Assembly (NCBI GenBank): GCA_949295915.1
Contig: CASFNB010000007.1
Coordinates: 47,416 to 111,415, forward strand
Direction: 5' to 3'
Length of the DNA: 64,000 nucleotides
From: an uncultured Pseudomonadota bacterium
Lineage (GTDB): Bacteria > Pseudomonadota > Alphaproteobacteria > RF32 > CAG-239
Shown: positions 15,417 to 51,331 of the stretch, in pieces
Layout of the letters: each line of letters starts with the position of its first letter
How positions within the stretch are numbered: the stretch's first letter is position 1
Notes under the pieces: model-generated
Database searches by the model: none
What the model was told of the DNA's origin: nothing
The model's input: only the letters and a program-made list of their open reading frames with translations
Program-made: the position numbers and the translations under genes

Positions 15417-16703
<1,287 letters not shown>

Positions 16704-18361: not shown

Positions 18362-18364
18362 ATT

Positions 18365-37846: not shown

Positions 37847-38215
37847 TTGCCGCACCAATCGGGGCTAGAAACCGCGATGCTATCAACGTGCAAGGCGGAA
37901 AGTTTGTAACTCGTTCAGATAAAAATGAGGTAGCTTAACCCCATCGGTTGATTGCCGAACAGACAGTGCCTCGTGTCCGCGATGCTCTTTTTGTTCTTGG
38001 CGGAGCTTTTGCGCCTTGCTCATTCGTCATTCTCATCCCGAACACACCCTTATCGTCACCTTGAATTTATTTCAGGGTCTCATGAGATGCTGAAACAAGT
38101 TCAGCATGACAGTGTGGGATGTTGGGTTGCCGCCGGCGAACACGGCGGTCAAGCTGAGTCAGCTTGACCGCACCGATTGATAGCTTCTCGGTCAGTGCCG
38201 AGAACGGTCTCATTT
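37817..38215. repeat. hairpin-rich composite repeat cluster, locus C
   Basis: GAACGCAGCGCGTTCGATCGC at 37817-37837 is identical to 13091-13111. Module 1 copies lie at about 37845-37915 (partial) and 37950-38040. Module 2 has its 24-mer at 38087-38110. The ORF-track entry 37952..38167 is a repeat translation. Confidence 0.7.
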
Positions 38216-38246
38216 TTTGGCGAGGCAAAAGCGCCTCGTAAGGAAT

Positions 38247-38507
38247 TTAATTGAAATAAATTAAGGAAAGTGATGTGATTAAAAACAACACAGCATATAT
38301 CAACGTATAAAAAGCCATTTTACCCATTTTTTGTTTGATTTTTGGGCGATACAAGAGCGGGAATAAAATATATACCAAAAGATAAACACTTCCCCAAAAA
38401 CCGACAAAAAGCTCATAATCTTGCGGGGTAAAAATAAATGCAGTTATGCCGCCCATCATCATGGGAACAACAAAAAAACCAATTATGAAAAATATTATCT
38501 TCTTCAT
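38247..38507 (-). CDS. small membrane protein (moron-like, at the left end of the phage cluster)
   Basis: The ATG at 38507 follows AAGAGGA. MKKIIFFIIGFFVVPMMMGG... has three hydrophobic spans. AT-rich and separated from the late operon by a terminator. Confidence 0.45.
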   Translation of the reverse strand: MKKIIFFIIGFFVVPMMMGGITAFIFTPQDYELFVGFWGSVYLLVYILFPLLYRPKIKQKMGKMAFYTLIYAVLFLITSLSLIYFN

Positions 38508-38541
38508 GATATCCTCTTTTGTTTCAAGATAATAAAAATTT

Positions 38542-38577
38542 AAAAAAAGGCAATATAAAAATATTGCCCTTTTTTTA
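38542..38577. terminator. bidirectional terminator at the end of the phage late operon
   Basis: A7-GGCAATAT-aaaa-ATATTGCC-c-T7. Confidence 0.6.
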
Positions 38578-38583
38578 TATTGT

Positions 38584-38832
38584 TTATATATTCTTGTTTT
38601 TATGATAACTTTTTCTCGCTTTATTTCCAATGTCTTTACATTTACTTACGCTATTTCTTGAATTTTTTAAACATTTTATTGTTTCTTTTTCGCCAACATT
38701 AAGAGTTTTAATTCCAAAGGCTTCATTTTTTATTTTTTTGTAAGTTTCACTAGCTTTTTCCATTACTTTATTTATACTTTTATTTTTGACCTTCTTTAAT
38801 GCTATTTTTCCTACTTCTATTATTTTATTCAT
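38584..38832 (-). CDS. hypothetical Lys-rich phage-cluster protein
   Basis: An 82-aa ORF, AT-rich, co-directional with the cluster. Confidence 0.3.
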   Translation of the reverse strand: MNKIIEVGKIALKKVKNKSINKVMEKASETYKKIKNEAFGIKTLNVGEKETIKCLKNSRNSVSKCKDIGNKARKSYHKNKNI

Positions 38833-38843
38833 TGTTTTTTCCT

Positions 38844-39041
38844 TTATAATTGTTTGGGATATTTAAACTTAATCGCTTGCCATTTTTCAATCACATCAAT
38901 CAGCTCATAAGGCAAATCGCCTCCTTCTTGCAAAACCATGTCAAAGGCTTTTAAAATAGCATCAAGCTGCTCTCCAATCGGCAAACTTTTCTCATAGGCT
39001 TTTTGTCTTTTTTCTTTATATGTCATTTTTTTTCTTGGCAT
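38844..39041 (-). CDS. hypothetical small phage protein
   Basis: A 65-aa ORF tightly packed after the 122-aa ORF. Confidence 0.35.
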   Translation of the reverse strand: MPRKKMTYKEKRQKAYEKSLPIGEQLDAILKAFDMVLQEGGDLPYELIDVIEKWQAIKFKYPKQL

Positions 39042-39050
39042 TTTTCTCTC

Positions 39051-39419
39051 CTATTTGATGATTTTTCCGGTTGTATCTACAATTGAATCTAGCAAACCAC
39101 TGGTCAGAGAGTTTTCTTTCTCACGATATTTTTGTTTGTAATTATACTCAAAATTATCATTATTATATGCCAGCTCATCATAACCTTCTTTGGCCTCTCG
39201 TTGTTGAGCTGCCGCCGCCGATTTGCTTGAACTCAAACCCATGGCGCTCAGACCGGCTCTTCTGCTTGCCAGCTGCTCATTTAACAAATTTTTGCGTTTG
39301 GTTTGATTGTATTGATATTCTTTTTGCATTTGTTTTAATTGTTTATTTTGATTGTTTGCCTCGTTTAACAAGTTGACTGCGGTCATGCCAACACCAACGG
39401 CAGTTTCAATTCCTCCCAT
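39051..39419 (-). CDS. hypothetical phage protein (possible small internal virion protein)
   Basis: 122 aa with a Gly/Ala hydrophobic N-terminus, then a Q/K/N-rich coiled coil. Its position after the tail-tube genes matches T7 gp13/gp14-like slots. Confidence 0.35.
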   Translation of the reverse strand: MGGIETAVGVGMTAVNLLNEANNQNKQLKQMQKEYQYNQTKRKNLLNEQLASRRAGLSAMGLSSSKSAAAAQQREAKEGYDELAYNNDNFEYNYKQKYREKENSLTSGLLDSIVDTTGKIIK

Positions 39420-39434
39420 TATTTTCTCCTTTCT

Positions 39435-41333
39435 TTAATCTTTGGTTTTTATTTCATTGGCTACCGATAAAAGCATAAATGCGTTCGGCACACTGCTTCT
39501 GATACTCCACATCGGCTTTTGGACATCTCTTATCCAGCCGATTGAGCGCAATTCAACATCTCCGCTAAACTCATCCGGCGGAGAATCTAAAATTTGGTCC
39601 TTGTGCATTTTCTTTAACGGAACATCAAAATAGCCATTGCCAAAATTAAGCCTTAACGATTTTGATTCGATTATCCGAAAAATTCCGTGAATCAAACGAT
39701 ACGCTTTAGGAGGATATGGGCGAGAAGAATCTACCATAAAAGGCAACGGTTCTATGATGTGTTCATATGGCAGACCGACTATGATTTTGCTTGTCTCGTT
39801 TTGAAGCATTATTTTGCCATTTTCAACTAACATATCTTCTATCGGAAAATCATCTGCAACTATAGAAACTTTTTTCCCTTCCCATTGCTCTAAACCGTCC
39901 CATTCTTTTTTTGGTATTTCAGAGGTAAAAATTTTGCCGCAATCGACATACATATCATCAGAAAACGTTTCTAAAAAATATGTATCTCCTCTTTGGATGA
40001 GAAAATATATTTCATTGCCGATTACGGAACAGGATATAAATTTACCATTCGTCACATATTTACTCCAAGCATTAACTTCTTCTGTGCGATAAGATGTTAA
40101 GCATGAAATGCTACCGTCTTCCAATATCAGATATAAAATACTGTCATCTTGGAAATAAACACAATCTACCGGTTTGTTGATAATTTCATCCGACAACAAG
40201 GTCAAATCTTTGGCTTGATAGGCTTGCTCTACATCTGCGTACAAAAACTCTCGCAGTTGTTTGCCGTTTTGAGATATAAACAAAGTTGCTCCATCTACAT
40301 TTTGCGGCGGTAAAGAACATTTTGCATAGGTTCCTATATTGGTTTGACGATTGAGTTTAATACTTGTGGGGGTTAACGGTTCGCCTGAAACCATCCATTC
40401 TGCTCCGGTAGTAAAAACCAATAAGTGCCTCGTTGATACCACATTGGTAACAGCGTTAACCTGATCTGATAAAATGGCAAAATCTATTGACTCATCATCT
40501 AACCCCGTACCAATGTCAAAATTAAATAAGTCGGATGACTTTGATAACCATAGATGATTGGGTAACGATTTGGAACCGCCTATGACCATTCTGTCTTGGT
40601 GAAAAGTTACCGAATTCGGATAGCCTCTGACTGCAGAAAATGCTTGTTCTTCCCATTCCGTACTATTATTTGTATTTTCAAGTTCTTTGACTACATTTGC
40701 ACTGGCTTCGCTGGAATTTGTTACCGATGTTACAACAACTTCTCCGCCATTTATTCTTATTCTGACTCCTCGGTGTTCTGCCTTAAACATCGGAGAACTG
40801 ACATTGAGAGTGATGGCTCCTACTCTGTCACTTGGTTTCATTGTCAATGTGTTTTGATAAAAATTATAATATGGGCAAAAAACCTGTCCGTCTTTTTGAT
40901 AGAATGACCATGCTGCAATTTTCCAGACCTCGTTTTGATTACGGCTGATTTCTTGCGGCGGTACATCAGGATGAACAATCAGCAACGTATCAGCACTTTG
41001 TGTCCAATTGATTTTTTTGAGCTGTTCTTGCGTCCATGGCGTTTCTAATGTTGAAATCAACTCTTTATTTTTATAAATTTTGACTTTTTTATCAACAAAA
41101 CACAATAAATAGGTTTGTTCCGTGTTGAACTCAAAAGAAATTAATCTACCCGCTTCTCCTACCTCATCCACACAAACCAAACCTTTTCTTCTGGAAATGC
41201 CTCCGGTCGGATGAATTTGCACATTCTGCAGTTTGCTTGCACCATTTTCAAAAATGCGCAAATCGCCGCGACCATAAAGTTTGTCAGACAACTGACCTGA
41301 GGTAAAATTGGTTTTGACGTATATTTGATTCAT
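39435..41333 (-). CDS. tail tubular protein B / nozzle-like (phage stabilisation protein family)
   Basis: 632 aa. The N-terminus MNQIYVKTNFTSGQLSDKLYGRGDLRIFENGASKLQNVQIHPTGGISRRKG fits the pattern I associate with BPP-1-type stabilisation/nozzle proteins. It sits directly after the adaptor-like gene. Confidence 0.5.
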   Translation of the reverse strand: MNQIYVKTNFTSGQLSDKLYGRGDLRIFENGASKLQNVQIHPTGGISRRKGLVCVDEVGEAGRLISFEFNTEQTYLLCFVDKKVKIYKNKELISTLETPWTQEQLKKINWTQSADTLLIVHPDVPPQEISRNQNEVWKIAAWSFYQKDGQVFCPYYNFYQNTLTMKPSDRVGAITLNVSSPMFKAEHRGVRIRINGGEVVVTSVTNSSEASANVVKELENTNNSTEWEEQAFSAVRGYPNSVTFHQDRMVIGGSKSLPNHLWLSKSSDLFNFDIGTGLDDESIDFAILSDQVNAVTNVVSTRHLLVFTTGAEWMVSGEPLTPTSIKLNRQTNIGTYAKCSLPPQNVDGATLFISQNGKQLREFLYADVEQAYQAKDLTLLSDEIINKPVDCVYFQDDSILYLILEDGSISCLTSYRTEEVNAWSKYVTNGKFISCSVIGNEIYFLIQRGDTYFLETFSDDMYVDCGKIFTSEIPKKEWDGLEQWEGKKVSIVADDFPIEDMLVENGKIMLQNETSKIIVGLPYEHIIEPLPFMVDSSRPYPPKAYRLIHGIFRIIESKSLRLNFGNGYFDVPLKKMHKDQILDSPPDEFSGDVELRSIGWIRDVQKPMWSIRSSVPNAFMLLSVANEIKTKD

Positions 41334-41899
41334 CCTCTTACCTCCACAAGCGTAAAGTCTTCAAAACAAGAAGGTGTTGATTGTTGGGCATCCACTGAAC
41401 GCGCACGATTAACGCTGTCTTCGGCGATTTTGCTTAAAAATTCCGCTCTGGTTGTGCTCTCGGTTAACGGAATGCAAAATTCATATGCCAATTTGTTAAT
41501 TAAAGCCTCGCAGAAATATGCCGGAAAATTGCTTTCATCCGGTCGGCACAGATAAGTTAAATTTAGTTGCGGTAAATTTGTGTAAATGCAATCTTTGACA
41601 ATTTTATATTCCGTCCCCCGCCCCTTATTTCCATACCCTGCCGAAACAATCCGCAAAAAATCGGACGGAAGTAAATAAGCATAGCTAAAATCAGCTATCG
41701 GCGTATTTTCCAAACGCGCCAACTTGGTTTGAGTTAGAGCAAAGCTCCATGGATATGATGATAATAAGGCATCGCGAATATAGGGATATAAATTGCCGGC
41801 GACTTCGGCTTCTGCCGTTCCGTCTTCAAAACTTGTTATGCTTGAAGCACCTATTTTTAACAGAGCCTGTGAACAGATATTGATACTGGTGTTACTCAT
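41330..41899 (-). CDS. tail tubular protein A / head-tail adaptor-like
   Basis: Start at the ATG at 41899 (MSNTSINICSQALLKIGASSITSFEDGTAEAEVAGNLYPYIRDALLSSYPWSFA), about 189 aa, comparable in size to T7 gp11. Its stop overlaps the next start by 4 nt. Confidence 0.45.
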   Translation of the reverse strand: MSNTSINICSQALLKIGASSITSFEDGTAEAEVAGNLYPYIRDALLSSYPWSFALTQTKLARLENTPIADFSYAYLLPSDFLRIVSAGYGNKGRGTEYKIVKDCIYTNLPQLNLTYLCRPDESNFPAYFCEALINKLAYEFCIPLTESTTRAEFLSKIAEDSVNRARSVDAQQSTPSCFEDFTLVEVRG

Positions 41900-41917
41900 G
41901 TATTCTTTTCCCCTCTC

Positions 41918-41949
41918 AAAAAAAGGAGCCTGCATTTCTACAGGCTCCC
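41918..41949 (-). terminator. intrinsic terminator/attenuator after the capsid genes
   Basis: The minus strand reads GGAGCCTG-tagaaatg-CAGGCTCC followed by T7, immediately upstream of the RBS of the adaptor-like gene. Confidence 0.6.
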
Positions 41950-42020
41950 TATCATTTGCTTAAAGTGTATCTTTTTTATTTAAAAACCTACAATACTACG
42001 AAAGGTATAAATTATTCCCG

Positions 42021-42281
42021 TTATGCGGCGGCAGGTGTTGCCAAAGCAGCAACAGTCACTGTTCCGTCTTCAATTGAAGACACGGACAAAACTGCCGGTT
42101 CTAAAGTACTTGCCGTTCCGGCATTTGCTAAAATCATATCGCCTTTGCGAGCAAACGGAGCAATATCGTTGAAATAACCGCTTCCTTTAACGGTATTTAA
42201 ATCATCTTCAGATGAATAGTTCCACAAAGTAAAACCATTGGCATAAGCCATTACGCTGAAATTTTTTGAATTATAAGCCAT
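42021..42281 (-). CDS. small phage protein downstream of the capsid gene (possible decoration/accessory head protein)
   Basis: An 86-aa ORF between the major capsid gene and the terminator. Confidence 0.35.
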   Translation of the reverse strand: MAYNSKNFSVMAYANGFTLWNYSSEDDLNTVKGSGYFNDIAPFARKGDMILANAGTASTLEPAVLSVSSIEDGTVTVAALATPAAA

Positions 42282-42306
42282 ATTTTTAATTCCTTTCTTC
42301 TATCAA

Positions 42307-43131
42307 TTATTCTTCTTTGCATTTGATGCGGATAACGCCGGTACCGTCAATTAAGCATGCGCCTTGGCTCATCATGTTATTAACAAAGTGAGCGGCATGG
42401 TCGCCGTGCCATGTGATGTCTGATTTTACATCTTGACCGGAAGCATGTCCGACTGCGGTTTTGTGGAAAATGAAGCAATCGCGATTGGTGCCGTCAAGCG
42501 GTAAACCTGTGTGCATAATCCAGTTGATGCCCAACCATTTGCGGCTTTCCGTGCCTTTTAAGAACGGCAAATTGTCACCGGCATAGTCAGAGTTGGAAAA
42601 CTCATCAATGTTCAACAAAGCATTCCATTGCAAAGGACCAACAATGCCAAAGCGTTGTCCATCATCGGGCACATCGTTGCTGTTCAATTTAGCAAAAGCT
42701 TGCAATATAGTGTCTTTGCTCAAAACTTGAGAATAATCACCAACATCATTTTCCTCTGGTGCTTGGCTCAATGCACCGATAATCAATTCATCGGTTTTTC
42801 TGCCCAAAGCATAAGCACCGGCACTGGCAACCACACGGCGTTCATCAATGCTCATTTTGAGCTCATCCAAAGCATCTACCCAATCACCGGCATAGTAGTC
42901 GAGCAATTCGCATTCAACCGGCGTGTGGTCAATGCTCATGACCGGAACCAAACCATGACGAGCCTTGCCGGAGGCAATGCCTTTGCCAACCTTTTGAAAT
43001 ACGGTGGTGGCGCCGACAATATTGCCTTTGTAACGAACGGCATTTCTCAATTTTGAGCCCATTTGTTGGTATGCCAAATGAACATCTGCTTCAAAGTTTT
43101 TAATAAAGGACTTACTTACTTCTGTTGACAT
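42307..43131 (-). CDS. major capsid protein
   Basis: 274 aa, placed after the scaffold-like gene and before the terminator. The sequence (FEADVHLAYQQMGSKLRNAVRYK...) resembles podovirus capsid proteins from memory. Confidence 0.65.
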   Translation of the reverse strand: MSTEVSKSFIKNFEADVHLAYQQMGSKLRNAVRYKGNIVGATTVFQKVGKGIASGKARHGLVPVMSIDHTPVECELLDYYAGDWVDALDELKMSIDERRVVASAGAYALGRKTDELIIGALSQAPEENDVGDYSQVLSKDTILQAFAKLNSNDVPDDGQRFGIVGPLQWNALLNIDEFSNSDYAGDNLPFLKGTESRKWLGINWIMHTGLPLDGTNRDCFIFHKTAVGHASGQDVKSDITWHGDHAAHFVNNMMSQGACLIDGTGVIRIKCKEE

Positions 43132-43173
43132 ATTTTTATTTTCCTTTTCATGTTAAATGTTAATGTTTTAGGT

Positions 43174-43884
43174 TTATTTTTCAGGATAAAGCTTTTCAAA
43201 ACCACGAGTGATTTTGGCGATATAGGCGCTATCCTTATCACGCCAATAACGCGGGTCTTCCATCATTTTACGAAGTCCGGCTTCACTTATATTGCTCATC
43301 TCGCCGTCGTTTTTGTTCAACAACGGTTCCGATGAACTCATCATTTTGTAAAGGGCAATTACACCTTCTGATGTGGAGCCCAGCGCTTCATAAACTTCCG
43401 GATTGACATTTTGTTTGGCCCAGTTGGAAAGTGAACGTGAAACCTCATTAAACTTATCTCTGCCGCCAAAGTAGCGAGATAGTTTTTCAAGTTGTTTTTC
43501 GGCTTCAAAATTGACGGCCATTTCATCTAATACCGGCAAAACTCTCTCGCCTGCCAAGTCATAAACAAACTGAGCTTGATCGTTGGTGAAGCCTTTTTCA
43601 TAAAAACGTTTCATCAAATCTTCATCCACTTCCAAAACCGGTGACGGACTTTTGATTTGATATTGCGTATAATTTTGCGGCATGTTGCGCAAATTGGTTT
43701 CAATCAGATTATCATCTCTTCTTGCCAAATCGTTATAAGAGGCAATCAACTCTTCCAATCTGACCTCTCCGTTTTGCTCGTCCCAAAATTGTTCGGGTAA
43801 GCCTTGCGGTTTGTTAGAATATCCGCCATTTTGAGAAATAGCGGATGTTTCCAAAAGATTTTCTGTTTTTGCTTTTGGTTGCAT
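43174..43884 (-). CDS. scaffolding-like protein
   Basis: The ATG at 43884 follows AAAGGA. About 236 aa, acidic/helical, located between the portal and capsid genes. Confidence 0.45.
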   Translation of the reverse strand: MQPKAKTENLLETSAISQNGGYSNKPQGLPEQFWDEQNGEVRLEELIASYNDLARRDDNLIETNLRNMPQNYTQYQIKSPSPVLEVDEDLMKRFYEKGFTNDQAQFVYDLAGERVLPVLDEMAVNFEAEKQLEKLSRYFGGRDKFNEVSRSLSNWAKQNVNPEVYEALGSTSEGVIALYKMMSSSEPLLNKNDGEMSNISEAGLRKMMEDPRYWRDKDSAYIAKITRGFEKLYPEK

Positions 43885-43907
43885 GTATTTTCCTTTCATG
43901 TAAAAAA

Positions 43908-44135
43908 TTAATTGATGTTACTTAACTGCTCAATTTGACGGACTAATCTTCTTTGTCCTTCCAAATCGCGCAGGTAACGGTCTTCTGCATCCGCACCTAA
44001 ACATCTCTCTATGGTTTGGCGGCGCAAATATGAGAGGACAATTTTGCCCTCTTTACTTATGAAGCACCGGACAAAAGCTTTTTTGATTTCTTCATCGCTC
44101 ATTTGTCGGGTGTCATATTCCTCATGCGGCGGCAT
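43908..44135 (-). CDS. small phage protein (Bbp19-like by recollection)
   Basis: 75 aa. The FVRCFISKEGKIVLSYLRRQT pattern is as in short proteins following the portal in BPP-1-like phages. Overlaps the portal stop. Confidence 0.35.
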   Translation of the reverse strand: MPPHEEYDTRQMSDEEIKKAFVRCFISKEGKIVLSYLRRQTIERCLGADAEDRYLRDLEGQRRLVRQIEQLSNIN

Positions 44136-45663
44136 TTTCTTCGCCTCCGCCGATTAAACCTTGCAACAGATTTTCATCGATGATTTTTTCGTTTATCAGT
44201 TTGTCGGGCACGTTCAAAATTTTGCCTAAAGTTTTGGCTGCTTCAAAAGCATTGACTGCGCCCATACCCAGTGCACCCAAAGATGATACCAATGTCACCC
44301 ATTGACTGATATTGTTGACGTCTTCTCTGGCTTTGAGCATGGCTAACGGCGATTTATACTGCAAATCGACAATCTTACCGTCTAAGTCAAAATTCATAAT
44401 ATCGCCGCGACGACGCAAAATCAGAAATGCGCGCTTGAGCAAGGGTGTCAGCAACTCGGACTGCAAGCGTCCGAAACTTGCTCCCAAAATGCGTGCTATC
44501 TCTGCCGTTCTTTCCAAAACTTCGGTTGCTGTCATGTTCGGCGCATTGACTTGCGATAATCTATCTGCCAGCAAGGCATGATTGATATTCTTTTGCAGAT
44601 TTTCCAAAATCAGCTGCGAAACATCAAATTTTCCGGGGGCTTCCAATGGGGTTAAGCCTTTTGAACCGACCGCCTTTGGAATAATTGCACCGGGGACGAG
44701 TTTGATATTTGCCGGATTTAGAACCCCGTCATCATCAGCCTGCCAAATGCCGGTGACGGAAATGGAAGCGTTTTTCAATATCAACTCCACAACTTTATTA
44801 GCGGTTTTGATATCCGGTAAAGCCTTCATTACCGGAGAGCGACCATAAATCTCTCCGGGGGCTTTAAGCCAACGAAAATTGATGAACGGTGAAGAAGAAA
44901 ATACGCCTTCTTTCAAAACGACATTATCTTCAACTCCGCTGTTTTCATCCCAAACAAAAGCCGTGTATTCATACCCTGCCGCACCGAACTTGCCGTTTTG
45001 CGGAATAACCGCTTCAATCAAACTCAGGCGGAAATCCGGATTTTGAGCTTGGTCGAGCCAGCCGTCTTGCAACTCTGCCTCGGGAAAACGCAGGCGAATG
45101 TCATCTATACTGACTTGCGAACAGCGAAATGTGGTATCCAACTTTCCGTCGGCACTTTCTTCCAATGCAATTTCGCGCAAAGGCACGGCATAGAATCTGA
45201 ACGCCGAAGCCTCTCCTACCGGTGCTTCTTCAAACATCAAACAAGCCGTGCCGACCGTAATTAAATCCAGATAACATTGATGAATTTCCACCGCAAAATT
45301 AGAATGTTCAAAATGCTGCAACATAATATCCGAAGTTTTGCTCAAAGTTTCTGCCACTTGTGAAGCTTCTTCCGGCAACAACTCCGGTCCTGCCGTCAAA
45401 CCAAACCATTTTGACCATGGTGGGGTTAATTCCGCCAGCAAAGAAGATGCTAATTGATCAACCGCATCGGGCGCCGTGGCATCAAACAAATGCAGATTTT
45501 TCTTGGCGCCTTCCACATTTTGAAACATTGAATTACAGACATTTTCTCTTTGGGGAAAAGCATATTCATAACATTCCTGCCAATGGGGCTCCCACAGCTG
45601 TTTTCTTTCTACAGCCTTTTGATAACGTTTGATTAGCTTTTCAATTTTATTATCCATTTTCAC
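44122..45663 (-). CDS. portal (head-to-tail connector) protein, podovirus type
   Basis: 513 aa. The N-terminal IEKLIKRYQKAVERKQLWEPHWQECYEYAFPQR pattern is typical of the T7-like connector family. Size and position fit a portal. Confidence 0.7.
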   Translation of the reverse strand: MKMDNKIEKLIKRYQKAVERKQLWEPHWQECYEYAFPQRENVCNSMFQNVEGAKKNLHLFDATAPDAVDQLASSLLAELTPPWSKWFGLTAGPELLPEEASQVAETLSKTSDIMLQHFEHSNFAVEIHQCYLDLITVGTACLMFEEAPVGEASAFRFYAVPLREIALEESADGKLDTTFRCSQVSIDDIRLRFPEAELQDGWLDQAQNPDFRLSLIEAVIPQNGKFGAAGYEYTAFVWDENSGVEDNVVLKEGVFSSSPFINFRWLKAPGEIYGRSPVMKALPDIKTANKVVELILKNASISVTGIWQADDDGVLNPANIKLVPGAIIPKAVGSKGLTPLEAPGKFDVSQLILENLQKNINHALLADRLSQVNAPNMTATEVLERTAEIARILGASFGRLQSELLTPLLKRAFLILRRRGDIMNFDLDGKIVDLQYKSPLAMLKAREDVNNISQWVTLVSSLGALGMGAVNAFEAAKTLGKILNVPDKLINEKIIDENLLQGLIGGGEENAAA

Positions 45664-45854
45664 TCTCCCAATAGTTTTTTACGATTTAAATCGCGATTGG
45701 TAGGGTCAAATGTTCCGGTATAAGATGTGCGGATTGTGCTTTCCAAACCTCGGCGTTGACGTGCCAAAGCTTCTTGTCTTGCCTTTTCTGCATCTTGTGC
45801 CGAAGTGTCTTCTACCACTTTAATTTTGGGTTCACTACTAAATACGCCTCCCAT
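45660..45854 (-). CDS. small hypothetical phage protein, translationally coupled to the portal gene
   Basis: The ATG at 45854 follows AAAGGAG. Its stop overlaps the portal ATG by 4 nt. Confidence 0.35.
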   Translation of the reverse strand: MGGVFSSEPKIKVVEDTSAQDAEKARQEALARQRRGLESTIRTSYTGTFDPTNRDLNRKKLLGE

Positions 45855-45876
45855 GTTTTCTCCTTTCATGTTGATA

Positions 45877-45905
45877 TAAAAAAAGCCCGAATTTTTTATT
45901 CGAGC
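45877..45905 (-). terminator. intrinsic terminator after the lysis cassette
   Basis: The minus strand reads GCTCGAAT-aaaaa-ATTCGGGC (one G-T pair) followed by T8. Confidence 0.5.
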
Positions 45906-45926
45906 CGGTTCTTGTTTAAGTTAAAG

Positions 45927-46421
45927 TTATTGTTTTTTGTTTGGCTTTTCGGTTCCGCTTTTGACAACCTGAATGCCTAATACACCCAAAGCCACGCTCC
46001 AAAGTGAAGTGGTTTCAACCAAAGCATTGATTATGTTTTCGGCATTTTCATATTTGCTCAAAATGACATAGCAAATTGTGCCGATCATACCAAACCACGC
46101 CAAAGCAACCGAATAACCAAACGCCGGACGCCAAAAACGCACAAATTTGTCTTCGGCATTCAACTCTTGACGTATGGTCTGATGAATCTGCGATAACGTA
46201 TTGTTATCAAGCTCATTTTCCAGTTCTTTCATTTTTTCCAAATGTCGATTGGCTTCACTCACCGCGGCATTGGATATTTTTTGTTTTTCAATATCCGAGC
46301 TCACTTCACCCAAAGCCAAATTAGCTTTGAGAGCCGTATCTCCGCCGATTTTTTCTAATCCCGACCGCACCATTTTAATCAAAAACGGCAGTCCGAATTG
46401 GCTTAAAAGTTTTATCAGCAT
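45927..46421 (-). CDS. holin, 3-TM gene-transfer-release type
   Basis: 164 aa with an N-terminal amphipathic segment, a central coiled coil, and a C-terminal RPAFGYSVALAWFGMIGTICYVIL plus a further TM span. Resembles the GTA_holin_3TM family. Abuts the endolysin gene. Confidence 0.55.
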   Translation of the reverse strand: MLIKLLSQFGLPFLIKMVRSGLEKIGGDTALKANLALGEVSSDIEKQKISNAAVSEANRHLEKMKELENELDNNTLSQIHQTIRQELNAEDKFVRFWRPAFGYSVALAWFGMIGTICYVILSKYENAENIINALVETTSLWSVALGVLGIQVVKSGTEKPNKKQ

Positions 46422-46841
46422 TTATCTCTCCACGTCGTTGTAAAAGACATGATTGCCGATTTCGGCACAAGGAATTTTACCAATGGACCAGCGTGGACGC
46501 ACTTTTTTGGTGTGATAATGCGTCGCACCGTAAGTTCTGTCCGGCAATAATCCTGCCATCGCCCTTTTGGCTATTCGCTTGCAGGTAGCATAAATAGGAT
46601 TGCTCTCATCCACACGCAGCAAAAGCCGATAGTTGACATCGTCCAAATTCCAACAAGAAAATTGTTTGTCCTTTTGGCAGACGCTTGCGACGTCATTACC
46701 CCACCAATAGCTGCCTTTCTTCTCACTCAAAGCGACGCGGTTCATTATCACGTTGGCAACCGCTTCTTGTCCGGATAATGGTTCTCCCCTTGCCTCACCG
46801 AAAATGGTTTTGGCAAAGATGTCCGTTGTTAAATCTGTCAT
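46422..46841 (-). CDS. SleB/CwlJ-type cell wall hydrolase (endolysin)
   Basis: IFGEARGEPLSGQEAVANVIMNRV...FSCWN...ATHYH is the Hydrolase_2 family signature. Confidence 0.8.
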   Translation of the reverse strand: MTDLTTDIFAKTIFGEARGEPLSGQEAVANVIMNRVALSEKKGSYWWGNDVASVCQKDKQFSCWNLDDVNYRLLLRVDESNPIYATCKRIAKRAMAGLLPDRTYGATHYHTKKVRPRWSIGKIPCAEIGNHVFYNDVER

Positions 46842-47125
46842 GTATTTCTTCCCACCCCATCTAATTTTTTTTCAATTCTCAGCAAATGGTCAGTTAAGCG
46901 GTTTTCCACATCTTTCAAATAGTTGACCGAAACATAATTGCGGGCGACATGAAGTTTGAAATCAGCCAGCGCATCTTTCAAATTTGAAACATGAGCATCG
47001 TGTGCTTCTTTCAAATGTTCTATGCCCGTATCCGCTTCTTTTTTGTTACGGTTGACCAATCTAAATAACGCGGCAAAAACCGGCAGCTCAACCATTGCTA
47101 TCCAGTTTGTCAGTTCGTTAAACAT
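46838..47125 (-). CDS. membrane-anchored coiled-coil protein (lysis accessory or unknown)
   Basis: 95 aa with a hydrophobic N-terminus (WIAMVELPVFAALFRLV) and then a coiled coil. Its stop overlaps the endolysin start by 4 nt. Confidence 0.35.
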   Translation of the reverse strand: MFNELTNWIAMVELPVFAALFRLVNRNKKEADTGIEHLKEAHDAHVSNLKDALADFKLHVARNYVSVNYLKDVENRLTDHLLRIEKKLDGVGRNT

Positions 47126-47133
47126 TGTTTTTC

Positions 47134-48648
47134 CTAATCTATTGTAAAAGTTGTTTGTGCCGAAAATTGCTTGTTACTGCCCTGCCATTTGTTATATTTT
47201 GGCGGTGTGTTGCCGACAAAACTAACATTCAAGCGCAAAGGTTCGCTGCTCAGGCAACCGGCAACGGCATCTAGAGCATCATCATGTCCGGTTCCGTCAA
47301 CCGAGAACTCGCGCATTTCTTCAACAAACGGCGTGTTCCAAATTTTTTTATGAACATTCAATGCCCTTTCCGCCAGCAGCACCTCAAATGCCGAAATTAT
47401 CCTCTCGACTTTGTTTTTGCTTGAATACATTTCCAAAACAGCAACACGCATATTTTTTTGCGCCAAAACCTGTTTTAATATCCCCGGCAAAAACTTACCG
47501 ATACCGTTGGCTTCTACCCGAACGGCATTCAAATGATTGCGCTCGATAAAAGCTGCCACTTTTTGACATTGTAATGACGCCGCATTATCTCTGACCTCAT
47601 CTTCAATTTTGATATATTCCAAATCGTGCAGCCAATAGTGCCCGTCTTCATCGGTAAAGACGCAGGCAATAACCGAATTATCTCCCTTTGAAGATGCAAA
47701 AGAAGGATCCCACCAGCAAGATGCCGACAACATTTTCTTCTCCCCGATTTTCAAAAAATCGCGCCCGTTTGATGCAACGATATTGATTTCGGCCTCATAA
47801 GGCTTCAAACAATCCGGATTCAAAATGCTATCGTTGAAGTTGACCGGTGTCAGCATCATTTGTGACAAAAATTTGTTCTCTCCCGAGCGAATGCGGATTG
47901 ATGCAATCTTTTCTTCGCTAAACCTTTCCGGCCAAGCAGATTTGCCTTCTTTATTCAAAATCGGCAGTTCCAACTTGGTAAAGCCAAGCAAAAAAGGTTC
48001 GGTCTCCGGCTTTTTATCATCGTACGCTACCTGATAGATGGTATAAAACGTATGCGGCGTGCCGATATAAAGCTGCATGCCTTCCGGTGTTAAGATATAA
48101 TCCAACTCCTCGAGCTTTTCTCTCATATCGGCTCTTTTGGCAGGAGAATCCGAATTTTTCGGAACCTCAACGTCATCACAAATAATCAAATCTGCTCGCA
48201 GGCCGGTAATGTTTGCGCCTAAGCCTTTGGCTAACATCGACGGATCTCTGAGCTCAAGCGGACGATTGATGGTAAATTGCCCTGCCGCCCATTGATCCGA
48301 CTTTTGCGGTTTCAATCCTTTGGTCAAAGGATGCTGTTCGATAATACGTTTGACGTTTCTAACCATTTTTTTAGCCAAAGCATGATCTGCCGCCATGACC
48401 AAAATTCTGGTTTCGGGCTTATAATATAAAACCCAAGCACAAAACAAACCGACAATCGTTGACTTGCCGGAGTTGCGAAACGCCATTAACAAACCTTGCC
48501 TTTGCTTAGACGTTGTAAACAACTTTGACAACCAATGTGCCATTTTGTTTTGGTGCTTGGGTACTTTCAGCCCCTGCAAACGCATCCAGACATATACAAA
48601 ATCAAAAAAGCTGACTTTTTTGTTTAAGTCAGCTTTCATCATCTTCAT
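47134..48648 (-). CDS. terminase large subunit
   Basis: Walker A-like FRNSGKST, Walker B LIICDDVE, and a C-terminal nuclease-like half (HDDALDAV). The start is placed at MKMMKADL (48648). Confidence 0.8.
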   Translation of the reverse strand: MKMMKADLNKKVSFFDFVYVWMRLQGLKVPKHQNKMAHWLSKLFTTSKQRQGLLMAFRNSGKSTIVGLFCAWVLYYKPETRILVMAADHALAKKMVRNVKRIIEQHPLTKGLKPQKSDQWAAGQFTINRPLELRDPSMLAKGLGANITGLRADLIICDDVEVPKNSDSPAKRADMREKLEELDYILTPEGMQLYIGTPHTFYTIYQVAYDDKKPETEPFLLGFTKLELPILNKEGKSAWPERFSEEKIASIRIRSGENKFLSQMMLTPVNFNDSILNPDCLKPYEAEINIVASNGRDFLKIGEKKMLSASCWWDPSFASSKGDNSVIACVFTDEDGHYWLHDLEYIKIEDEVRDNAASLQCQKVAAFIERNHLNAVRVEANGIGKFLPGILKQVLAQKNMRVAVLEMYSSKNKVERIISAFEVLLAERALNVHKKIWNTPFVEEMREFSVDGTGHDDALDAVAGCLSSEPLRLNVSFVGNTPPKYNKWQGSNKQFSAQTTFTID

Positions 48649-48949
48649 CTTGCTCCTGAGCATGTGCTTCTTCCAAAATGGAAGATATATCAAAATTATC
48701 ATTCTGCGGCAAAGACATCGGCTCGTCTTCGGTCCAACGCGCGAGTTTTAACAAAGTTTCGGCATGAACCACCGCCGACTTGCATGCACTGTGATGCGCA
48801 CTAAAGCCTTTGGCATCGACCGGTGCCGGTTGCTCGGCAAAATTTTCGTAACTTTCAATCACCTCCGATATTTTTTGTGGTAATGTTTTTTTCAAATTTG
48901 CTTTTAATGATTTTAGTGTTTTTATTTTTTTACTTGGCATTATGTGCAT
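48629..48949 (-). CDS. hypothetical protein in the small-terminase position
   Basis: A 106-aa ORF immediately upstream of and overlapping terL, with a basic N-terminus and acidic C-terminus. No motif recognised. Confidence 0.35.
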   Translation of the reverse strand: MHIMPSKKIKTLKSLKANLKKTLPQKISEVIESYENFAEQPAPVDAKGFSAHHSACKSAVVHAETLLKLARWTEDEPMSLPQNDNFDISSILEEAHAQEQDEDDES

Positions 48950-48956
48950 ATCCCAT

Positions 48957-48980
48957 AAAAAAAAGCTCCGTCATCGGAGC
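48957..48980 (-). terminator. intrinsic terminator located between the late promoter and the first late gene
   Basis: The minus strand reads GCTCCG-atga-CGGAGC followed by T8, ending 8 nt before the ATG at 48949. Confidence 0.5.
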
Positions 48981-49021
48981 CTTATTTTGTTTTAGATACA
49001 CTACCAGCAAGTGATATTATG

Positions 49022-49050
49022 CTTATAAATTAAAAAAAATGAAATGTCAA
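49022..49050 (-). promoter_or_regulatory. strong candidate sigma70 promoter upstream of the phage late operon
   Basis: On the minus strand, TTGACA (49050-49045), 17 nt, then TATAAG (49027-49022). Confidence 0.45.
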
Positions 49051-49069
49051 GACTTTTTTCCTACCATTT

Positions 49070-49471
49070 TTAAGAGTTTGTTAAAAAAATATATAATTGA
49101 TACGGCGTAATGATGCTAACCTTATGAATTCCCAATATTCTTTTGACAAATTCCACACAAGTAAAAATGCCGAGCGGTGCACATTTTAACGGCGCTTGGC
49201 GAAACTTCACCGGCAAAATTTTGACATTTTTGCTTGTTTTTAAGTGATTTATATAATCCAAACCCAACAAAGATTCGTGTTTGAAGATATACAACTGATT
49301 CGACATAGGATTAAGTTCCAACCATAGGTTGTGTTCTTTTGATATGCAAATTAGCATATAACAGTGTCTGTAGCCTTTTTTTAAGAATCTTAACCACCAC
49401 AAACTGGTGTTGTTTTCAAAAACCACATAGCCTTTAAAAAAATATCCGCTTTGGAATCCAGAATTACGCAT
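49070..49471 (-). CDS. hypothetical protein (early/regulatory region of the phage cluster)
   Basis: A 133-aa ORF with no recognised motif. Confidence 0.35.
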   Translation of the reverse strand: MRNSGFQSGYFFKGYVVFENNTSLWWLRFLKKGYRHCYMLICISKEHNLWLELNPMSNQLYIFKHESLLGLDYINHLKTSKNVKILPVKFRQAPLKCAPLGIFTCVEFVKRILGIHKVSIITPYQLYIFLTNS

Positions 49472-49480
49472 TTGTTTCTC

Positions 49481-49810
49481 CTACAAAATTTTATAATATC
49501 TTAAATAAACATCAAAATTGCGTAAGCCTTCTTCCCACAAGCGGATTTCACTGCGTTTAGCTCTCTTATCATCCCATGGCGTCAACTGCTTTTCTCCCCA
49601 CTCCGTCATCACACGCAAATGCCTATTGCTGATATGATGATGAAGTTTCATATTTTTTATTATCCGAGAGATATCTGTTATTTCGCAACATCTTGGTTTA
49701 CCGCAATAATCTGACCGAGAGCGCAGCCCCCCTGCTCTTGCTTGCACCGAGGTGCAAAACCAAAACCAAACTTCTTCGGCATTTTCAAATGGTTCAAAAT
49801 ATTCTTTCAT
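49481..49810 (-). CDS. hypothetical protein, possible regulator
   Basis: ATG at 49810 (MKEYFEPFENAEEVWFWF...). Cys-containing central region and a Trp-rich C-terminus. First gene of the leftward early unit, divergent from the CI-like gene. Confidence 0.35.
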   Translation of the reverse strand: MKEYFEPFENAEEVWFWFCTSVQARAGGLRSRSDYCGKPRCCEITDISRIIKNMKLHHHISNRHLRVMTEWGEKQLTPWDDKRAKRSEIRLWEEGLRNFDVYLRYYKIL

Positions 49811-49841
49811 TCCCTTCTTTCTCCCCTGAATTGTTAGCACA

Positions 49842-49860
49842 ATTAACTAAATATTAACTA
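49842..49860. promoter_or_regulatory. direct-repeat candidate operator in the divergent control region
   Basis: ATTAACTA at 49842-49849 and again at 49853-49860, 11 nt centre to centre. Further inverted repeats AGGAAT..ATTCCT and CTAT..ATAG lie at 49893-49945. Confidence 0.3.
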
Positions 49861-49973
49861 TAAAGTTTTATACATTAGGTTGTAGGAATTTCAACACAAA
49901 AAGGATTGATTCCTATTTCGTCTTTTGTTATGATAGGAAAAATTGCCTTTAACCCTTTCTGAAAGCAAAAAAA

Positions 49974-50594
49974 ATGAAATATGAAAATGTTTGGGATGCT
50001 GTTGATAAGTTAGCTCAAAAGCATGGTCTTTCCCCTTCCGGTTTGGCAAAACTTGCCGGTCTTGACGCTACTACCTTTAATAAAAGTAAACGCATTCGCC
50101 CTGATGGCAAAAAGCGCTGGCCATCCCTTGATAGTATTAATCGGCTGCTTGAAATATTTAATATTACTTTTGAACAATTTTATGCACTCAGTGCCGGCGC
50201 GGAAGAAAAAGAAAACGGCTCCATTCCTTTTATTAAACTTTCTGAATTAAATGCGCAAAAATTTTATGTTGATTTTAAACTTGCTTCTCAAAATTGGAGT
50301 AAAGTACTTTTCCCTGATTTTAAAGAGTCTCTTTATGCCGTGGAAGTTGATACTGAAAACTATCTGCCTATGTATCGTTATGGTACGTTGATTATTGTTT
50401 CCGAAAATTCTGATATTCGCAAAAATGACCGCGTGGTTATCTACCTGAAAAACAATTCTATCTTATTGCGCGAATTTGTCAGAAGAACCCCCTCAAAACT
50501 GATTGTTGTTGATATTAATCATAAAGAAGTTGAAGAAACTATCGCAATTGCTGATATTAACCTCATTAACCGCATTGTATGGGTAAGCCAATAG
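49974..50594 (+). CDS. CI/LexA-like HTH regulator with a degenerate (non-catalytic) S24 domain
   Basis: N-terminus VWDAVDKLAQKHGLSPSGLAKLAGLDATTFNKSKR...RWPSLDSINRLL and C-terminus ...NRIVWVSQ match the alphaproteobacterial HTH-S24 family. EVDTENYLPMYRYGT replaces EVSGDSMLPLYRDGD, and LLREF replaces the Lys motif. Confidence 0.7.
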   Translation: MKYENVWDAVDKLAQKHGLSPSGLAKLAGLDATTFNKSKRIRPDGKKRWPSLDSINRLLEIFNITFEQFYALSAGAEEKENGSIPFIKLSELNAQKFYVDFKLASQNWSKVLFPDFKESLYAVEVDTENYLPMYRYGTLIIVSENSDIRKNDRVVIYLKNNSILLREFVRRTPSKLIVVDINHKEVEETIAIADINLINRIVWVSQ

Positions 50595-50604
50595 GAGATG
50601 TTCT

Positions 50605-50850
50605 TTGAATATAAAAAAATATTTGCAATTAAGTGATAAAAAACTGCTCGAATTGGAAAATAAATATCAGTTTCTTCCAAATGAAGAAGAAATTGATGAT
50701 TTAGAATTGTCTTTTGATAAATCTTGCTTAAAAGAAACAGCCAGAATTGCCAGACTTCATGCCCTGCAAAGACAAACTCAAAAAGCTGAAAAACTCCTCG
50801 CTGAAAAGCGTAAACAAGCTATTTTGCAACGTTTTATTCGCCCCGAATAA
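50605..50850 (+). CDS. hypothetical coiled-coil protein
   Basis: TTG start 6 nt after AGGAGA, 81 aa. Overlaps the convergent downstream gene by 17 nt. Confidence 0.35.
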   Translation: MNIKKYLQLSDKKLLELENKYQFLPNEEEIDDLELSFDKSCLKETARIARLHALQRQTQKAEKLLAEKRKQAILQRFIRPE

Positions 50851-51331
50851 GCTGTTCTTGATGAAATGTTTTATAAATTTGCTCTAATGTTTGTTCCGGA
50901 TCTCCGGTAAAATCTATAGATATTTTATTTCCTAAAGTGCATTTTCGGTTTTGTGCATCATAAAAACAAAACGGGGTTGAAAACCAATCGGCATATTCTT
51001 TGCTATCATCAATATGAATGGTGATTTTTTTCTCGGCACAATATTCTCCTTTGGCCATGTTCCACAACATATCCGGAACTTTATATTCACCGTTTTTATA
51101 ATATTCAACCATCCCTTGCGCATCATAATAATCTAATATGGCAAACAGTTCTTTATATATTATTTTATGATCTTGTAAAAATCTATCAACAACTTTCCTC
51201 GGACCACCCGTAATGATATATACTTCTATCCCTTTTTGTTTAGCTAAATGCGTAAAACGACTGAAGTATTCAGGATATTTATCAACAACGCCGTGAAAAT
51301 CCAAACCTATACGAATCGGCTCGTTATTCAT
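50834..51331 (-). CDS. HAD-like hypothetical protein
   Basis: 165 aa. The N-terminal IGLDFHGVVD resembles HAD motif I with His in place of the second Asp, and a later IHIDDS could be motif IV. Weak. Confidence 0.35.
   Translation of the reverse strand: MNNEPIRIGLDFHGVVDKYPEYFSRFTHLAKQKGIEVYIITGGPRKVVDRFLQDHKIIYKELFAILDYYDAQGMVEYYKNGEYKVPDMLWNMAKGEYCAEKKITIHIDDSKEYADWFSTPFCFYDAQNRKCTLGNKISIDFTGDPEQTLEQIYKTFHQEQLIRGE

Follow-up and report, generated by a model that had tools for sequence, protein, structure and literature searches.

Does a compact block of short-tailed-phage genes lodged among core genes of a bacterial chromosome represent the wreck of a prophage, or a unit that its host has taken over and kept? 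The question is raised by an element of ∼12 kb in the window analysed here, a stretch of 64,000 nucleotides (contig CASFNB010000007.1, positions 47,416 to 111,415) from an uncultured bacterium of the alphaproteobacterial CAG-239 group. The initial annotation, made from the letters of the window, had described a podovirus-derived head, tail-tube and lysis cluster and had argued for purifying selection on a particle-forming unit, perhaps a gene transfer agent (GTA), over a deletion-truncated prophage. Comparison with related genomes favours selection: the phage-derived module had settled at its single site before the CAG-239 group radiated and has stayed there, every one of its genes is under purifying selection, and its control DNA is conserved and partly rewired. 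We regard it as a strong candidate for a new, T7-like kind of GTA and not as a decaying prophage. To our knowledge, only a few GTA lineages have been characterised, and their origin and purpose are still debated.

Gene content, synteny and selection

The element occupies 38.8–50.9 kb of the window, with all structural, packaging and lysis genes on the minus strand. It lies where first placed, with argS on its left and yhdP, prfB, a class A penicillin-binding protein gene (PBP1A) and amiC on its right. Gene calls were based on a six-frame listing of open reading frames (ORFs) and on Pfam, PHROGs and NCBIfam scans, which bear out the genes read from the sequence (TerL, portal, Bbp19-like protein, scaffold, capsid, tubular protein A, nozzle, SleB and a three-transmembrane holin); among all cluster ORFs scanned there were only structural, packaging, lysis and regulatory genes. 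No cluster ORF matched an integrase, excisionase, primase or replicase, fibre or large core family in these three collections. ARAGORN detected no tRNA, a repeat search found no att-like or terminal direct repeats flanking the element, no Rfam family lies within 36–52 kb, and no small ORF matched a PADLOC defence family. Four minus-strand intrinsic terminators are present, also as annotated (48983–48962, 45906–45884, 41950–41923 and 38575–38542). GC content is host-like (∼0.37–0.45 against a window mean of ∼0.39) and dips at 38–39 kb, the left end that had been singled out. Membership needed correction at both ends: the core list stands, the two leftmost ORFs are strain-specific and not conserved parts (38584–38832, with a homologue in only one other species representative, L009, and 38247–38630, with a ratio of non-synonymous to synonymous substitution rates, dN/dS, of 0.26–0.6), and the divergent repressor had been omitted. 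The features of the element, from right to left, are:

50605–50850, plus strand: 81-aa ORF downstream of the repressor, an element member conserved in the CAG-239 group; no Pfam or PADLOC match
49974–50594, plus strand: CI-like repressor, divergent from the cluster, with a Cro/C1 helix-turn-helix and a degenerate S24 (LexA-like) domain (Peptidase_S24; HTH_26; phrog_4 'transcriptional repressor')
49481–49840, minus strand: ORF of early gene 1 (s119), helical, the true protein of ∼109 aa at 49481–49810; candidate regulator or antiterminator
49070–49471, minus strand: early gene 2 (s133), alpha/beta, with invariant His36-Cys37 and Cys105-x-Glu107 (motifs FRHC and TCVEF)
48629–48949, minus strand: ORF in the position of the small terminase subunit, TerS (s106; phrog_31793, E 4e-37), always directly upstream of TerL, also in related elements outside the group (outgroup elements); candidate TerS from its position
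47134–48702, minus strand: large terminase (TerL) of the T7 class (NF033889 termin_lrg_T7, E 3e-125; Terminase_6C and T7 RNaseH-like domains); the real start is probably 48642, giving 502 aa
46838–47125, minus strand: 95-aa ORF with hydrophobic N-terminus and coiled coil, first gene of the lysis cassette, always ahead of SleB (phrog_29007, E 4e-37)
46422–46841, minus strand: SleB-type cell-wall hydrolase, the endolysin (Pfam Hydrolase_2, E 5e-22; phrog_938 endolysin)
45927–46421, minus strand: GTA three-transmembrane holin (PF11351 GTA_holin_3TM, E 3e-9; phrog_3427 holin)
45884–45906, minus strand: intrinsic terminator after the lysis cassette
45660–45869, minus strand: 69-aa ORF overlapping the portal start, kept at every locus of the group and also found in outgroup elements
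44122–45663, minus strand: portal, T7 gp8-type head-to-tail connector, 513 aa (PF12236 Head-tail_con, E 1e-126)
43908–44135, minus strand: Bbp19-like small protein (PF25181, E 6e-11)
43174–43899, minus strand: T7-type scaffolding protein (PF05396 Phage_T7_Capsid, E 2e-15)
42307–43131, minus strand: major capsid protein, 274 aa (PF19821 Phage_capsid_2, E 1e-72)
42021–42281, minus strand: 86-aa ORF after the capsid gene (phrog_18004), conserved as far as the pelagiphage Hodr
41923–41950, minus strand: intrinsic terminator after the capsid module
41330–41935, minus strand: tail tubular protein A, or adaptor (phrog_394, E 1e-51; phrog_9239 'tail tubular protein'); the real start is probably downstream of 41935, homologues being called at 189 aa
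39435–41333, minus strand: nozzle, or tail tubular protein B (PF25675 Phage_nozzle; phrog_376, E 3e-141)
39051–39419, minus strand: 122-aa Gln/Lys-rich coiled-coil protein in the position of the first internal virion protein; no family assignment
38844–39041, minus strand: 65-aa ORF, the last conserved cluster gene, 60–95% identical across the group, dN/dS 0.05–0.14
38542–38575, minus strand: final terminator-like hairpin, past the strain-specific ORF 38584–38832

Whether relatives carry the same cluster at the same locus had been proposed as a check, and they do, in 15 species representatives and ∼30 metagenome contigs. A GTDB scan with one genome per species found a capsid relative, 63–100% identical, in at least 554 species genomes, and the 15 closest representatives (group A, L009–L023; capsid 77–100% identical) all have the gene order of the window. 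This order runs from yhdP, a HAD-like gene and, where present, the 81-aa ORF through the divergent repressor, early genes 1 and 2, TerS-position ORF, TerL, 95-aa ORF, SleB and holin to the 69-aa ORF, portal, Bbp19, scaffold, capsid, 86-aa ORF, tubular A, nozzle, 122-aa ORF and 65-aa ORF. An alpha/beta-hydrolase gene and an SBP gene come next in 13 of the 15, with mlaC, gltX and cysS in the fetched flank of most. YhdP is down to 48–63% identity in the more distant members of group A, so the arrangement is old. The 81-aa ORF has homologues of 56–99% identity at the same position in loci L001–L022.

To follow site occupancy, metagenome contigs were searched with the hydrolase flank, and the 32 loci that extend at least 2.5 kb upstream were informative. 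The cluster adjoins the flank in 21 of these, and 11 shorter contigs also end in cluster genes. Seven of the 32 have unrelated housekeeping genes upstream (flagellar export, mipZ, pgm and polysaccharide genes), cell-division genes included, and are rearrangements like that in the window. There, the ancestral hydrolase-to-cysS flank lies at 2337–7622 in the expected orientation, separated from the cluster by a 30.6-kb housekeeping block (7623–38246: argS, gap, pgk, phosphorylase, tolC-like genes and an aminoacyl-tRNA synthetase gene). The block came to lie there in the window's strain, and the left end of the cluster is ancestral. Since the ancestral flank is still recognisable and the orthologous clusters end at the same gene, the cluster has not been clipped at 'repeat locus C', an alternative that the initial annotation had named. 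That locus is probably a dispersed repeat of ∼140 nt at 37977–38118, in the 400-nt gap between argS and the left end of the cluster, which sits at the rearrangement junction and has copies, 77–88% identical, at 12874–13015, 13034–13166, 13168–13305 and 1565–1655. The distal junction of the cluster is a recurrent rearrangement point, with unrelated host genes in seven other contigs. No longer or full prophage occupies the site at any locus examined, including hydrolase-flank loci that lack the cluster.

An estimate of dN/dS, a further check proposed at the outset, was made by the Nei-Gojobori method against four related genomes. All conserved cluster genes fall at ∼0.01–0.15 (the repressor reaching 0.19, from 0.06, and the early genes at 0.06–0.14, early gene 1 at 0.06–0.09), in the same range as the neighbouring host genes gltX (0.03) and cysS (0.03–0.045). 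Terminase, portal, scaffold, capsid, adaptor and nozzle lie between 0.01 and 0.09, with TerL at 0.03–0.07, the portal at 0.011–0.06, the capsid at 0.011–0.035 and the nozzle at 0.06–0.09 overall; the 95-aa ORF of the lysis cassette has 0.016–0.03. For the 81-aa ORF the ratio is 0.085–0.088 against L009 and L011, dS being saturated against L010 and L012. Reading frames are intact in ∼30 loci, in keeping with the first reading of the window; the few apparent stops come from query ORFs extended too far at the N-terminus, and where relatives cover the holin or the 122-aa ORF poorly, this reflects divergence.

Divergence of the concatenated cluster proteins goes in step with that of the left or the right host flank (Mantel r 0.98–0.99, p ≤ 0.0003), and well-resolved clades agree between cluster and flank. 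Over 38000–53120, nucleotide identity between the window and L010 is 89–96% from s119 through tubular A, 73–86% in the nozzle and distal end, and 72–82% in the adjacent repressor, HAD-like and yhdP genes. Synonymous divergence is at its minimum in the TerS-position gene (dS 0.04 against L009). This pattern could reflect recent recombinational exchange between lineages, or strong codon constraint.

Control DNA and the early genes

The spacer between the repressor and the early genes varies among species except for an inverted repeat, a −35/−10 pair and a TTAA-N7-TTAAC motif, as seen in an alignment of 14 diverged loci. The control features of the element are:

49883–49915, no strand: inverted repeat TAGGAATCAA...TTGAAATTCCTA, putative operator overlapping the early −35, conserved in the 14 diverged loci
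49867–49894, minus strand: putative early promoter, −35 TTGAAA at 49894–49889 and −10 TATAAA at 49872–49867, read from the sequence within the conserved block
49843–49858, plus strand: TTAA-N7-TTAAC, CtrA-box-like, between the early promoter and early gene 1
48953–49065, minus strand: late control region, with a TAGGAA half-site, −35 TTGACA at 49050–49045, −10 TATAAG at 49027–49022, leader at 49016–48990 and terminator at 48983–48953

The inverted repeat contains TAGGAAT, and the CtrA-box-like site reads TTAACTAAATATTAAC. TTAA-N7-TTAAC, the consensus CtrA box, occurs in all 23 loci of the CAG-239 group and in none of 15 outgroup elements, and possibly marks a CtrA site. The shorter form TTAA-N7-TTAA has three matches in the whole window, two of them within the two control regions of the element. 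The second of these, at 49070–49084, falls where early gene 2 ends, ∼20 nt ahead of the late −35, and is conserved in the closest relatives only.

Repressors of the outgroup elements retain the LexA-type G(D/E)SM serine and the lysine. In the CAG-239 group, the catalytic serine is gone in almost all members (L012 may retain it) and the lysine in most, the window included. As this loss of self-cleavage coincides with the gain of TTAA-N7-TTAAC, we read the two together as a shift of control from the SOS response to a host regulator. A repressor without autocleavage residues and a conserved CtrA-box-like motif point in that direction, yet a phage-type repressor and the early genes persist. The possibility that the 206-aa S24 protein is the host LexA was rejected, as it has no LexA match in NCBIfam.

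The late spacer has a fixed order of conserved TAGGAAAAAAGTC-TTGACA, −10, conserved leader of ∼27 nt and intrinsic terminator. Late promoter and leader are conserved in 14 loci; the terminator is found in 13 of 13, with stem sequences that differ but always pair. The terminator after the holin is conserved in position in seven of eight loci, with different stems, and that of the capsid module in 15 of 15, with covarying stems and a ΔG of −15 to −23; the latter occupies the position of T7 Tφ. The spacer between the capsid gene and the 86-aa ORF, used as a control, has no hairpin. All late genes sit behind a strong promoter followed by a terminator within ∼60 nt, which is the design of lambdoid Q antitermination. 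Comparable arrangements have been reported for GTAs: late genes of BaGTA require the Q21-like antiterminator BrrG, its late capsid operon being terminator-attenuated (bioRxiv 10.1101/2024.11.20.624540), and transcriptional activation combined with anti-termination has been reported for the Caulobacter GTA (PMC11150451).

The early genes are the candidates for such a factor. The family of early gene 1 has 50 members, every one tied to this element; its AF2 model (pLDDT 85) has its best TM-scores with the Q21 antiterminator, a weak hint (TMq 0.45–0.46, E 4–7). Early gene 2 has 87 homologues, which accompany the portal in all element groups, outgroup elements included, and lie beside a GcrA-like gene in L093. 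Weak top Foldseek matches of its model (AF2 pLDDT 86) include the Aichivirus 2A protein, which carries an H-box/NC motif, and together with the invariant residues these are hints that the protein may be a thiol enzyme rather than a DNA-binding regulator. A PDB sequence search gave no matches for either early protein.

Probable particle production and its possible purpose

Portal (PF12236), scaffold (PF05396), tubular protein A (phrog_394), nozzle (PF25675) and terminase (NF033889) all show the traits of T7-like podoviruses. The closest isolated phage is Hodr (Pelagibacter phage EXVC031P, OQ414635.1, HTVC010P-type), with a capsid 42% and a portal 35% identical, followed by other HTVC010P-type pelagiphages. 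Hodr shares with the element the order portal ... scaffold, capsid, small ORF, tubular A, nozzle, but its 34-kb genome carries past the nozzle proteins of 159, 783 and 1247 aa and a fibre, none of which the element has; the cluster stops two small conserved ORFs past the nozzle. The TerL proteins of the two are not detectably similar.

GTAs of the RcGTA type (Rhodobacter capsulatus, Caulobacter crescentus) resemble the element in several ways: both are phage-derived head, tail and packaging clusters that carry no genes for replication or integration, both are inherited vertically and kept under purifying selection, and both have a holin of the GTA_holin_3TM family. CtrA is a known regulator of RcGTA, and the motif of the element matches its binding site; the late operon would be terminator-gated as in the Caulobacter GTA. 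RcGTA is siphovirus-like, whereas portal, scaffold, tubular proteins and nozzle of the element are T7-type; its TerL is of the headful, P22-like kind and that of the element of the T7 class. Unlike RcGTA, the element has lysis genes within the cluster and a CI-like repressor, and no fibre was found for it. BaGTA of Bartonella is likewise an alphaproteobacterial domesticated phage module, with a terminator-attenuated late operon of the design suggested here. Its proteins differ in size (portal ∼620, TerL ∼447 and capsid ∼372 aa, PMC3610622, against 513, 502–522 and 274 aa), and it is coupled to a run-off replication origin, of which none was seen in the element. Identity of the cluster with BaGTA was rejected on these sizes and on the origin of its homologues in uncultured gut Alphaproteobacteria.

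The statement in the initial annotation that no podovirus-based GTA is known is outdated, as FpGTA of Faecalibacterium prausnitzii, a human-gut Firmicute, was described as podovirus-like in 2026, its genes for fibre, receptor binding and lysis lying at a second locus, at a distance of 125 kb (PMC12946183). By description it resembles the element in a ∼10.5-kb operon with TerS, TerL, portal, scaffold, capsid and short-tailed-phage proteins. Its particles (∼40 nm, ∼8.5–9 kb of DNA) have been demonstrated experimentally, those of the element being predicted from its genes. Faecalibacterium is the only earlier report of a podovirus-like GTA-like element, and the present one appears to be a domesticated phage particle module of GTA-like kind.

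GTAs in the viriform sense are phage-derived without self-replication or integration, evolve in concert with their host, package random host DNA in a head too small for their own gene set, are controlled by host regulators and deliver DNA to recipients (PMC9662315). The element shows tailed-phage origin without replication or integration genes and host-concerted evolution, a minority with empty sites or partial deletions being the exception. That it has been domesticated under selection we hold with high confidence. Constraint on every one of terminase, portal, scaffold, capsid, adaptor, nozzle, holin and endolysin makes it most likely that the element still builds DNA-filled short-tailed particles and lyses its producer, and the most probable purpose of such particles would be a GTA-like or in-situ transducing role. 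Taken as a whole, the explanation that we prefer, with moderate confidence, is a temperate T7/HTVC010P-like podovirus that was anciently domesticated into a vertically inherited particle unit with this role and the following working, whose steps from induction to release, like DNA transfer itself, we infer. The CI-like repressor, no longer self-cleaving, would keep the early promoter off through the conserved inverted repeat, until a host signal, possibly CtrA at the TTAA-N7-TTAAC box, turned on the early genes in a subpopulation. An early product would let RNA polymerase pass the terminator ∼60 nt beyond the late promoter, by Q- or BrrG-like antitermination, and the late operon would then supply TerS and TerL, procapsids, portal, adaptor and nozzle. 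Chromosomal DNA would be packaged without excision or replication, and holin and SleB would lyse the producer to release fibre-less, podovirus-like particles. Transfer of host DNA by these particles is a serious possibility that falls short of probable.

Several observations weigh against a domesticated unit with a transducing role. Empty sites, in which yhdP and the HAD-like gene are followed directly by the hydrolase flank, were found in three contigs from three separate related species, one of them (L204) syntenic with the window over ten genes. In another contig (L191) the stretch between the 69-aa and the 65-aa ORF, both included, is gone, and what is left is the repressor, the early genes, the terminase and the lysis cassette. 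L190 and L203, shorter contigs from this species, have the same junction of holin and hydrolase, while other contigs of that species carry the full cluster. The initial annotation had named relatives that lack the cluster, or carry a full prophage at the site, as a refutation; these three empty-site species and three contigs without the head-tail half are in part of the first sort, and no case of the second was seen. Since such empty sites and deletions occur, the element is usually kept yet dispensable. The cluster has no gp14–16-like internal core or ejection proteins, no replication and transcription module of its own and no tail fibre, and so falls short of a functional T7-like phage. Fibre or core homologues are absent from the whole window when searched with the fibres and large proteins of related elements and of Hodr. 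Delivery into a recipient is accordingly unexplained, with neither a fibre in the window nor gp15/gp16-like ejection proteins. Foldseek searches of PDB and BFVD with both early proteins gave nothing at E < 0.4, the resemblances to Q21 and Aichivirus 2A being hints. Terminases of known GTAs group with headful packagers. A T7-class TerL is at odds with random headful packaging, and in the GTA literature this class is treated as sequence-specific (PMC7947584). Finally, the 274-aa capsid has the same length as that of Hodr, a 34-kb packager; by this homology a capacity of ∼34 kb would be expected, so the head could hold the whole 12-kb cluster, unlike those of classical GTAs.

Three points ease these objections. 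The second-locus fibres of FpGTA show that missing fibres can be encoded elsewhere, and the possible exchange of the cluster suggested by L010 is another. The third lies in the nozzle, where two segments evolve fast (aa 121–240, at 40614–40973, and aa 421–540, at 39714–40073): between genomes with 99–100% identical capsids, aa 181–240 are 52% identical with a local dN/dS of ∼0.4, and the nozzle core is 95–98% identical. These segments could be the exposed, receptor-contacting surface of a fibre-less particle. A bolder reading, which we think rather unlikely to hold in its entirety, goes further. The element would be the third independently domesticated alphaproteobacterial GTA lineage and the first from a T7-like podovirus, with SOS control replaced by CtrA-type control and Q-like antitermination, and with a fast-evolving nozzle domain recognising the receptor instead of fibres. 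Its range would take in nearly all Alphaproteobacteria of human and animal guts (CAG-239/RF32 and Rs-D84/Enterousia), among them 0.9-Mb genomes in which the terminase works as two polypeptides.

If the element is a GTA, a T7-type lineage across hundreds of gut alphaproteobacterial species would be an extra independent domestication event, would put to the test the view that only headful packagers can turn into GTAs, and would give abundant uncultured human-gut bacteria a route of gene exchange.

A different purpose would be served if the particles packaged mainly their own locus, from a pac site near the TerS-position gene, in a helper-dependent satellite or self-transducing element that spreads horizontally among related strains. 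Fibres, ejection proteins and possibly replication would then be supplied by a podovirus that shares the cell or superinfects it. A TerL of the T7 class, presumably sequence-specific and accompanied by a small subunit of its own, a T7-size head with room for all 12 kb, related elements with and without a fibre gene, and the empty sites would suit such an element, as would the viral label given to such regions by the tools behind IMG/VR. The higher identity to L010 in the cluster than on the yhdP side and the dS minimum at the TerS-position gene suggest recent exchange, which it would also explain. We nevertheless consider it improbable. Satellites of the cf-PICI type carry an integrase, an AlpA-type regulator and a primase or replicase alongside their own capsid and packaging genes, whereas neither the cluster nor the 10 kb around it holds an integrase or replication gene at any locus of the CAG-239 group, and excisionase and att repeats are missing too. 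A single fixed site across deeply diverged species, with distances that track the host flanks, counts against it; the SOS-cleavage residues expected in a helper-sensing element have been lost from the repressor; and no closely related complete phage was found, Hodr being the nearest isolate.

Domestication for a purpose other than transfer is also unlikely in our estimate. The unit might serve altruistic lysis, with release of DNA, nutrients or other contents, form killer or decoy particles, or protect against related phages. The lysis cassette and its control are conserved to the same degree as the structural genes, particles without fibre or ejection proteins encoded in the cluster or window may not inject DNA, and the split TerL of Enterousia described below might impair packaging. 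Low dN/dS in the structural and terminase genes, on the other hand, is hard to explain unless complete DNA-filled particles matter, and defence families have no PADLOC match in the cluster. The deletion variant of one species shows lysis to be separable, yet the full set is the common state.

That the cluster is an ordinary cryptic remnant, decaying neutrally after deletion of integrase, replication, core and fibre genes, is very improbable and largely refuted by the results on selection and synteny: its content is a podovirus subset that ends at the point from which Hodr goes on to its 783- and 1247-aa core genes and its fibre, and it is missing from some strains and species, but in place of relaxed selection, frameshifts and sporadic presence there are constrained, intact genes in ∼30 loci, synteny across species whose YhdP has diverged to ∼50% identity, covarying terminators, conserved operator and promoter DNA, and retention in genomes of 0.8–0.9 Mb.

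Related elements and neighbouring features

The domesticated unit of the window belongs to what is apparently a large, undescribed family of compact (10–18 kb) alphaproteobacterial elements with a repressor, two early genes, terminase, T7-type head, stubby tail and lysis cassette, and with no genes for replication or integration. No description of the element or family was found in the literature searched on CAG-239, RF32, Rs-D84, Enterousia or Scatocola. Capsid relatives sit on contigs of uncultured gut Alphaproteobacteria, close ones in Ca. Scatocola and the human-gut 'Azospirillum sp. CAG:239', whose capsid CDB52859.1 belongs to a cluster found on at least 1000 contigs. A plasmid collection held no relative except a remote Legionella match. 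IMG/VR has at least 595 contigs with related capsids, many of them regions of ∼18 kb and some from isolate genomes; virus and prophage pipelines label such regions as viruses, which may be wrong.

In the ∼18-kb elements, the divergent repressor is followed by early genes 1 and 2, 69-aa ORF, portal, Bbp19, scaffold, in some cases cargo, capsid, 86-aa ORF, tubular A, nozzle, coiled-coil ORF, tailspike or fibre, TerS-position ORF, TerL, 95-aa ORF, SleB and holin. They too have no integrase or replication genes, and fibre-less versions of ∼10.5 kb exist (L097). The coiled-coil ORF comes after the nozzle in every element group, a similar ORF being found there in L146. L096, with a capsid 78% identical, keeps the fibre and the ∼18-kb order, so the CAG-239 group has apparently shed its fibre gene, and its terminase-lysis block has apparently been shifted ahead of the portal. 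An N-terminal fibre domain is common to the ∼18-kb elements, the Hodr fibre and a 182-aa mini-ORF in part of the Enterousia group.

Group B comprises ∼57 species of Ca. Enterousia and relatives (GTDB order Rs-D84), in which the cluster is rearranged and interleaved with host genes. A birA-like gene is followed by SleB, a small transmembrane ORF, scaffold, capsid, 86-aa ORF, tubular A, nozzle, coiled-coil ORF, in some cases the mini fibre, and an ORF of ∼200 aa for the N-terminal ATPase of TerL; then come three reverse-strand genes (one of unknown function, an XRE-XRE-S24 regulator and dnaB), an ORF for the C-terminal nuclease of TerL, portal and Bbp19. TerL is split exactly at the boundary of ATPase and nuclease into two intact ORFs in nearly all loci with a long enough flank. 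In L029, the ATPase half (13758–14351) and the nuclease half (∼17700–18533) are ∼3.4 kb apart, with the reverse-strand genes including dnaB at 14348–17917 between them, a layout common to most of L024–L088; in L031 the nuclease half is placed after the portal. Ca. Enterousia genomes are 0.8–0.9 Mb in size (PMC8035907), and that genomes so small should keep all these ORFs points to a function. The related elements thus form a graded series, from SOS-competent with a fibre, through fibre-less with a dead-peptidase repressor and CtrA-box-like motif, to scattered with a split terminase in 0.9-Mb genomes, from which steps of phage domestication might be read.

A third arrangement is seen in L093 (3214–20626, on a 2.8-Mb chromosome) and in L077, the cultured Oleispirillum naphthae Y-M2. 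It has a GcrA-like gene, the homologue of early gene 2, portal, Bbp19, scaffold, capsid, tubular A, nozzle, ORFs of 152, 373 and 669 aa, a 618-aa fibre, lysozyme and a GTA-type holin, is flanked by chemoreceptor genes, and has no TerL homologue within 10 kb. In ∼18-kb high-GC elements of isolate genomes, an ORF of 795 aa lies between scaffold and capsid (L146, 5697–8084), adjoined by a 204-aa ORF on the opposite strand; judged by sequence, the 795-aa product looks like a GGDEF-EAL (cyclic-di-GMP) protein, apparently cargo within the structural operon. A sequence from human faeces in Mexico (MT838907.1, L095; 5084 nt, 'UNVERIFIED: Bacteriophage sp.') encodes a capsid 77% and a portal 73% identical. 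Regions of this family thus enter databases as phages, and their DNA may have been recovered in virus-like-particle preparations.

Away from the element, GC content in the window is lowest over 17–24 kb (∼0.29–0.36), and three consecutive ORFs of 236–257 aa, with no Pfam match, lie at 16794–19084 beside an aminoacyl-tRNA synthetase gene.

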